From: Escherichia coli
GTDB lineage: Bacteria > Pseudomonadota > Gammaproteobacteria > Enterobacterales > Enterobacteriaceae
Length of the DNA stretch: 64,000 nt
Direction: 5' to 3' (one strand)
Assembly (NCBI RefSeq): GCF_003334385.1
Contig: NZ_QOWN01000011.1
Both the position numbers and the translations under genes were made by a program. Below, one piece after another: positions 14,930 to 15,215 of this stretch (the first letter of the stretch is position 1; every line of letters begins with the position of its first letter). The notes under the pieces are model-generated. The model saw only the letters and a program-made list of their open reading frames with translations, did no database searches and was not told where the DNA came from.

Positions 14930-15215
14930 TTGCGGATGCGCTGCTTTAGGGTGGCGCATTTGGCATCGACGCATGACTGCCGGATGCGGCGTAAACGCCT
15001 TATCCGGCCTACGGTTCAGGCACAGGTTTGTAGGCCTGATAAGACGCGTAAGCGTCGCATCAGGCAATGGTGCTCGGATGCCGGATGCGGCGTAAACGCC
15101 TTATCCGGCCTACGGTTCAGGCACAAGTTTGTAGGCCTGATAAGACGGGTAAGCGTCGCATCAGGCAATGGTGCTCGGATGCCGGATGCGGCGTGAACGC
15201 CTTATCCGGCCTACG
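14930..15215. repeat. REP/BIME cluster: three tandem copies of an ~101-bp unit of paired REP palindromes
   Basis: gccggatgcggcgtaaacgccttatccggcctacg recurs at 14979, 15080 and 15181, each with an inverted partner ...gcctgataagacg.gtaagcgtcgcatcaggc. Confidence 0.9.

Follow-up and report, generated by a model that had tools for sequence, protein, structure and literature searches.

An ordinary BIME-2 array of five alternating REPs between copA and ybaQ in Escherichia coli, and its variation in size among strains

In the Gilson/Bachellier/Hofnung classification, BIME-2 elements consist of Y and Z2 REPs with short linkers and occur in multiple tandem copies that are well conserved within a locus and vary in number among strains, whereas BIME-1 elements are single copies of Z1 plus Y whose long L linker often holds an IHF site (Ton-Hoang et al. 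2012, PMC3333891). The model BIME-2 is REP325, the source of naRNA1-6, for which roles as a terminator and as a stabiliser have both been demonstrated; the same work found higher expression of convergent gene pairs that have a REP (bioRxiv 10.64898/2026.03.23.713779). The BIME-2s at sucB–sucC, araD–araA and tldD–yhdP are cleaved by gyrase within a Y REP or close to one (Espeli & Boccard 1997; Sutormin et al. 2019), and the transposase RayT (TnpA-REP) cleaves and rejoins BIMEs in vitro (PMC3333891).

The repeat between copA and ybaQ of E. coli is a BIME-2 of five REPs. It resembles the other members of that family in all respects, including an extragenic position at gene 3′ ends, and it is an ordinary element that has already been catalogued. 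With REP325 it shares the Z2–linker–Y unit (89 bits against the naRNA4 model), the multi-unit tandem arrangement and the location in a 3′ UTR; REP325, with its 12 hairpins, is set between tandem genes of a single operon (yjdM–yjdN), whereas the array described here has five and lies between convergent genes. Its likeness to BIME-1 or RIB elements is limited to inverted REPs in an extragenic 3′ position, and it has none of their distinguishing parts, namely the Z1 plus Y pair in single copy and the 35-nt L linker with its IHF site.

Anatomy and class of the array

The window analysed here is a stretch of 64,000 nt (contig NZ_QOWN01000011.1) equivalent to 459.8–523.8 kb of K-12, the K-12 coordinate being 523796 minus the window position. 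Within it, copA (Cu+ exporting P-type ATPase; b0484 in MG1655) occupies 12417–14921 on the + strand as an 834-aa ORF, and ybaQ (HigA-family antitoxin or HTH regulator; b0483; TIGR02607, E = 1.1e-30) occupies 15237–15578 on the − strand. The two genes converge, and the array takes up most of the 315-nt spacer that separates their stop codons, with the copA 3′ UTR entering it from one side and the ybaQ 3′ UTR from the other. A comparison of 4,301 nt around the array with MG1655 (NC_000913.3 507500–511800, reverse complement) returned a single mismatch, and the spacer itself is identical in both. These matches, together with the Y and Z2 REPs described below, bear out the original prediction of a REP/BIME array between copA and ybaQ.

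Several features of the flanks and of the wider window deserve mention in their own right. The sole mismatch lies in copA at 14055 (A in the window, G in MG1655) and gives Thr547 in place of Ala547 in CopA. The start of MG1655 copA (window 12417–12628) also has a second annotated product, a 'soluble Cu(+) chaperone' encoded as a joined CDS with a programmed frameshift. For ybaQ, the mechanically drawn ORF (15237–15632) begins at 15632 and has 131 aa, whereas the annotated product begins at 15578 and has 113 aa; residues 6–84 of the shorter form match the HigA model. Gathering-level Rfam matches identify three expected K-12 features on the − strand, the sroB sRNA (16509–16592), the dnaX programmed-frameshift element (30376–30440) and the SRP (4.5S) RNA (47244–47340).

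The original prediction described a tandem triplication of a unit of about 101 bp, starting at 14930. Tandem Repeats Finder places the repeat at 14978–15215, with a period of 101, 2.4 copies, 97% matches, no indels and a score of 455, and a gapless repeat finder concurs, with start-to-start spacings of 101 and 101. Unit 1 (14978–15078) and unit 2 (15079–15179) differ at just 2 of 101 positions, far above the 80% identity below which the units would not have been regarded as homologous. The third unit has only its first 36–37 nt, a Y REP, in common with the others and then continues as unique sequence. The period and the homology are therefore as predicted, the number of complete units is two rather than three, and the start at 14930 is mistaken, because 14930–14977 is a unique leader outside the repeat.

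The palindrome said to recur at 14979, 15080 and 15181 does so exactly: REP 1 (14979–15012), REP 3 (15080–15113) and REP 5 (15181–15214), all on the + strand, match the Y consensus without a mismatch, and 100 dinucleotide-preserving shuffles yielded no match. The sequence between them had been called near-identical, which is correct, but it contains an inverted REP that had been overlooked. The Z2 consensus is matched on the − strand by REP 2 (15030–15065, no mismatch) and REP 4 (15131–15166, one C>G mismatch in the upper stem). With a Z2 REP inverted in each unit, the array becomes a strictly alternating series of five REPs (Y>, <Z2, Y>, <Z2, Y>), the arrangement that defines a BIME-2. All five end in CCTAC, that is, with the conserved GTAG/CTAC tetranucleotide at the foot, and their predicted hairpins range from −18.6 to −21.9 kcal/mol, with stems interrupted by a 1×1 mismatch in Y (−21.5 kcal/mol for REP 1) or a 2×2 bubble in Z2 (−21.9 kcal/mol for REP 2 and −18.6 kcal/mol for REP 4). 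The loop of REP 5 is TGAA, not TAAA. Tail-to-tail linkers of 17 nt separate REPs 1 and 2 (GGTTCAGGCACAGGTTT, 15013–15029) and REPs 3 and 4 (GGTTCAGGCACAAGTTT, 15114–15130, one difference from the first); head-to-head short (S-type) linkers of 14 nt follow at 15066–15079 (AATGGTGCTCGGAT) and 15167–15180, completing the 101-bp period.

The leader contains a hairpin of its own (14931–14965, + strand; −18.6 kcal/mol, z = −3.1) that begins 10 nt past the copA stop codon, with nine intervening bases. It is REP-like in its GGATGCGC arm but lacks GTAG/CTAC. Its homology to the repeat unit is weak (83% over 14955–15013, a stretch that includes the REP itself), as is the match of the leader hairpin plus the first Y REP to the naRNA4 model (30 bits). 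It is kept in every allele described below, including the REP-less one (L002–L006), and in E. albertii and E. whittamii; a T>C substitution in the one-REP allele L003 replaces one of its G-U pairs with G-C. As RNA, the spacer folds well beyond shuffled sequences on both strands (z = −8.3 and −9.3). No intrinsic (Rho-independent) terminator is predicted on either strand of 14922–15236, and the copA–ybaQ spacer has no predicted promoter.

In its anatomy, its short linkers and its strain-variable tandem number, the array has every characteristic of a BIME-2 and none of a BIME-1. It is listed as 'BIMEs2 507807-508042', length 235, in Table DS3 of Sutormin et al. 2019 (PMC6379681), an entry that corresponds to window 14979–15214 once the 775-bp offset between W3110-MuSGS and MG1655 is applied; we confirmed this offset on two other BIMEs in the window. 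A literature search combining ybaQ, copA and REP found nothing on this array, returning just the TRIP1e repeat, which is involved in chromosomal rearrangements and is located, in strains without ybaQ, between copA and ybaP (PMC10888264).

Other BIMEs in the window illustrate both classes. A canonical BIME-1 at 33740–33837 consists of Z1 (+), a 35-nt L linker and Y (−); the linker holds an IHF-like site, ATTCAATATATTG, with one mismatch to the consensus, and the element appears in the Topo-Seq table as 'BIMEs1 489184-489281' with no gyrase sites (PMC6379681). A single BIME-2 unit at 22269–22352 (Z2−, Y+; 74.3 bits against Rfam naRNA4) is listed in the same table as 'BIMEs2 500669-500752', also with no gyrase sites.

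Variation among strains and age of the element

Measuring array size across genomes required a query free of repeats. A query containing the array found a median of at least 32 places per genome in all 5,426 complete E. coli genomes, as befits a highly repeated palindrome, and BLAST joins overlapping repeat pieces, so that coverage cannot tell alleles apart. A search for the locus in the same genomes gave record spans of 801, 700, 599 and 543 bp, and REPs were counted in representatives. A flank-only query built from the unique flanks gives spacer length directly from the record span, and its results were tallied for 60 genomes sampled at even intervals.

The site holds between 0 and 11 REPs, in agreement with the prediction that copy number differs between strains. 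The spacer measures 57 nt with no REP (L004), 113 nt with one (L003), 214 nt with three (L002), 315 nt with five (K-12 and the window), 416 nt with seven (BL21(DE3), L005) and 618 nt with eleven (L006, also L045). Every REP-bearing allele examined is composed of a 56-nt leader, n × 101 nt and a 57-nt tail, with n = 0, 1, 2, 3 or 5, and the BL21(DE3) allele equals that of K-12 plus an exact duplicate of unit 1. Size thus changes in whole 101-bp (Z2 plus Y) steps, a pattern consistent with unequal recombination in register, or with slippage, between units.

In the 60-genome sample, ten genomes carried five REPs, 14 each carried three, one or none, and one carried eleven; in the remaining seven, ybaQ did not adjoin copA. 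By the flank-only query, the latter situation applies to 619 of 5,422 genomes (~11%), and the REP-less allele, recognized by its 90–95% identity band, is present in 1,270. In the sample, about 23% of E. coli genomes have no REP at the site and about 23% have one; no particular copy number is required. The alleles track lineages (all four sampled O157:H7 records, for example, have three REPs), and change therefore looks slow relative to strain divergence.

To place the element in time, we rely on one scan of species-representative genomes with a degenerate copA 3′ end. In genera other than Escherichia, ybaP comes directly after copA, and a REP-like palindrome peculiar to the genus is often present; in many Citrobacter genomes, such a palindrome lies immediately 3′ of the copA stop codon. 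In E. albertii (L012) and E. whittamii (L040), the leader hairpin, a Y REP and a partial or complete Z2 REP lie 3′ of copA, and ybaQ is absent. The retention of these parts indicates that the element persisted at the site across species. Judged from these gene orders, the BIME-2 at the copA 3′ end predates E. coli, and ybaQ is a later arrival between the array and ybaP.

The neighbourhood of ybaQ also varies. K-12 YbaQ is an orphan HigA-type antitoxin, with a 137-nt gap before ybaP (window 15237–15715). A RelE/ParE-family toxin gene of 303 nt lies just upstream of ybaQ in 1,266 of 5,426 E. coli genomes, a count that coincides with the 1,270 genomes having the REP-less 57-nt spacer. The toxin gene was present in four of four REP-less loci checked and absent from six of six REP-bearing loci checked. 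In another locus (L007), the toxin/ybaQ haplotype has been deleted, leaving ~22 nt of the ybaQ 3′ end. The mutual exclusion of toxin and REPs may reflect either shared ancestry or a functional link.

Gyrase cleavage, RayT and the proposed role

The original prediction named gyrase as a partner of such arrays, and published mapping bears on this at the present locus. The Topo-Seq table contains two ciprofloxacin-induced gyrase cleavage sites in the array, at ~15094, in the loop of REP 3 (the second Y), and at ~15025, in the tail-to-tail linker between REPs 1 and 2; for the treatments with oxolinic acid, microcin B17 or rifampicin plus ciprofloxacin, the table has none in the interval (PMC6379681). 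About 0.24 ciprofloxacin sites would be expected there by chance (Poisson P ~0.025). The evidence is modest, and the signal is weaker than that of the sucB–sucC BIME-2, which has six sites with ciprofloxacin, four with rifampicin plus ciprofloxacin and five with oxolinic acid. A further pair of gyrase sites, at 508673/508674, was considered and rejected, because with the 775-bp offset corrected they fall inside copA.

The prediction also called for a search for a REP-associated tyrosine transposase gene elsewhere in the genome. K-12 has one, rayT (b0228, 'REP-associated tyrosine transposase'), at 247,637–248,134, with Y/Z2 REPs on both sides and ~260 kb from the array; in the window itself, tblastn with K-12 RayT found no homologue (best E-value 0.59). 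The REPtron formed by rayT and its flanking BIMEs (K-12 247.6 kb) has the same Y/Z2 REPs as the copA–ybaQ array but differs in having the transposase gene beside them, and the array is accordingly a dispersed, non-autonomous copy.

We regard the account of the array as a BIME-2 of the usual kind as highly probable, its identity being all but certain. By analogy with its family, it would most likely serve as a two-way 3′-UTR barrier and a modest gyrase site that is resized in 101-bp steps. Transcripts of both copA and ybaQ would run into it, the spacer having no intrinsic terminator. The REP hairpins (−19 to −22 kcal/mol) would block 3′–5′ exonucleases and would partly attenuate read-through, in part via Rho. 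The array would thereby stabilise both messages from either direction and insulate copA and ybaQ from each other. As DNA, its Y REPs may serve as gyrase sites, those of BIME-2s being preferred ones, and the array would grow or shrink by whole 101-bp units through in-register unequal recombination or slippage. RayT (TnpA-REP) might also process the array, such activity having been demonstrated in vitro alone. REP-induced ribosome stalling, reportedly described by Liang et al. in 2015, is said to need a REP no more than 15 nt from the stop codon. The nearest canonical REPs lie 57 nt from the copA stop codon and 22 nt from that of ybaQ, so that stalling does not fit the locus. Whether the array exerts a real regulatory effect on copA and ybaQ themselves is a narrower matter, and here we favour such an effect only slightly.

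Other readings of the same sequence can be set against this one. The generic claim that BIMEs bind IHF, which BIME-1 does by way of its L linker (PMC3333891), had entered the original prediction alongside gyrase, and taken at face value it would make the array a BIME-1 or RIB-type element whose main role is IHF binding. The array lacks both a Z1 REP and a long L linker, its linkers being 17 and 14 nt, and the IHF consensus, WATCAANNNNTTR, has no match in 14922–15236 at zero or one mismatch, whereas the BIME-1 at 33740–33837 carries a site in its 35-nt linker. At the level of sequence this reading is refuted, and we give it practically no weight; because the array has no IHF site, gyrase, not IHF, would be the relevant partner, and the prediction holds for the former only. 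Somewhat less remote, yet still improbable, is the idea that the array comprises one or more genes for naRNA4-type nucleoid-associated ncRNAs, which would bind HU, bridge DNA cruciforms and condense the chromosome. Its two Z2-S-Y units, at 15033–15110 and 15134–15211 on the − strand, score 89.3 and 79.9 bits against RF02564 (naRNA4; gathering score 59.5), about 80% of REPs are transcribed, and any two-hairpin RNA, even antisense naRNA4, condensed DNA with HU in vitro (Qian et al. 2015). However, the + strand of the same units scores 63.6 and 64.0 bits, and RF02564 also matches the unrelated single BIME-2 unit at 22272–22349, so that the model in effect sees a BIME-2 unit and a match denotes a sequence class, not an sRNA gene. 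Moreover, naRNA4 proper is encoded at a different locus, REP325 (yjdM–yjdN), the spacer has no predicted promoter, and a 2026 preprint (bioRxiv 10.64898/2026.03.23.713779) found neither measurable nucleoid compaction by REP325 or naRNA4 nor REP–REP contacts in Hi-C, which stands against Qian et al. 2015 and makes the function of naRNA4 itself disputed. Two ORFs drawn through the repeat, 14930–15196 (88 aa, TTG start) and 15067–15471 (134 aa), do have the coordinates first reported for them and do stay open over 88 and 134 codons. That they encode real small proteins is hardly conceivable, and their dismissal as repeat artefacts was sound. Because 101 mod 3 is 2, the 88-aa ORF reads units 1 and 2 in different frames, and each gain or loss of a unit shifts the frame; the ORFs are absent or altered in the 0-, 1-, 3-, 7- and 11-REP alleles. 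Neither matches an NCBIfam model, most of the 134-aa ORF runs antisense to ybaQ, and the 13 records inspected in which ybaQ adjoins copA, one with the 618-nt allele among them, annotate no CDS in the spacer.

The main alternative to a barrier and gyrase site is that the array is a selfish or neutral passenger of RayT activity and recombination, harmless between convergent genes, a view prompted by the roughly 23% of genomes that lack a REP there. Both presence and number vary, from 0 to 11 REPs, with the 0-, 1-, 3- and 5-REP classes roughly equal; units are gained or lost whole; BIMEs are cleaved and recombined in vitro by RayT (PMC3333891); and rayT is present in K-12. Against it stand the retention of the leader, Y and Z2 at the 3′ end of copA in E. 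albertii and E. whittamii, the lack of another terminator in the spacer, the gyrase cleavage mapped within the array (PMC6379681) and the family-level expression effects on convergent gene pairs (bioRxiv 10.64898/2026.03.23.713779), none of which is decisive for this locus. The accessible part of that preprint's supplements contains, for the copA/ybaQ locus, just an unrelated copA expression row. On balance we regard a pure passenger as unlikely, though as the most serious of the alternatives, and retain the two-way barrier with modest gyrase cleavage as the preferred reading. A bolder form of that reading, in which the lineage-specific REP number (0 to 11) would be a heritable dial on copA (copper efflux), on ybaQ or on both, and the exclusion between REPs and an intact toxin gene would be a functional trade-off at the ybaQ 3′ end, is speculative and in our judgement quite unlikely.

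Implications for annotation and for the BIME-2 family

For annotation, the correct label for the repeat is BIME-2 (5 REPs), and the ORFs that cross it are best suppressed; the array has little importance beyond this. Rfam matches to naRNA4 are to be read as 'BIME-2 unit' and not as an sRNA gene. The series of 0, 1, 3, 5, 7 and 11 REPs stands beside copA, a well-studied and easily assayed gene, and offers a convenient natural test bed for asking whether REP number tunes 3′-UTR termination, mRNA stability or gyrase recruitment.
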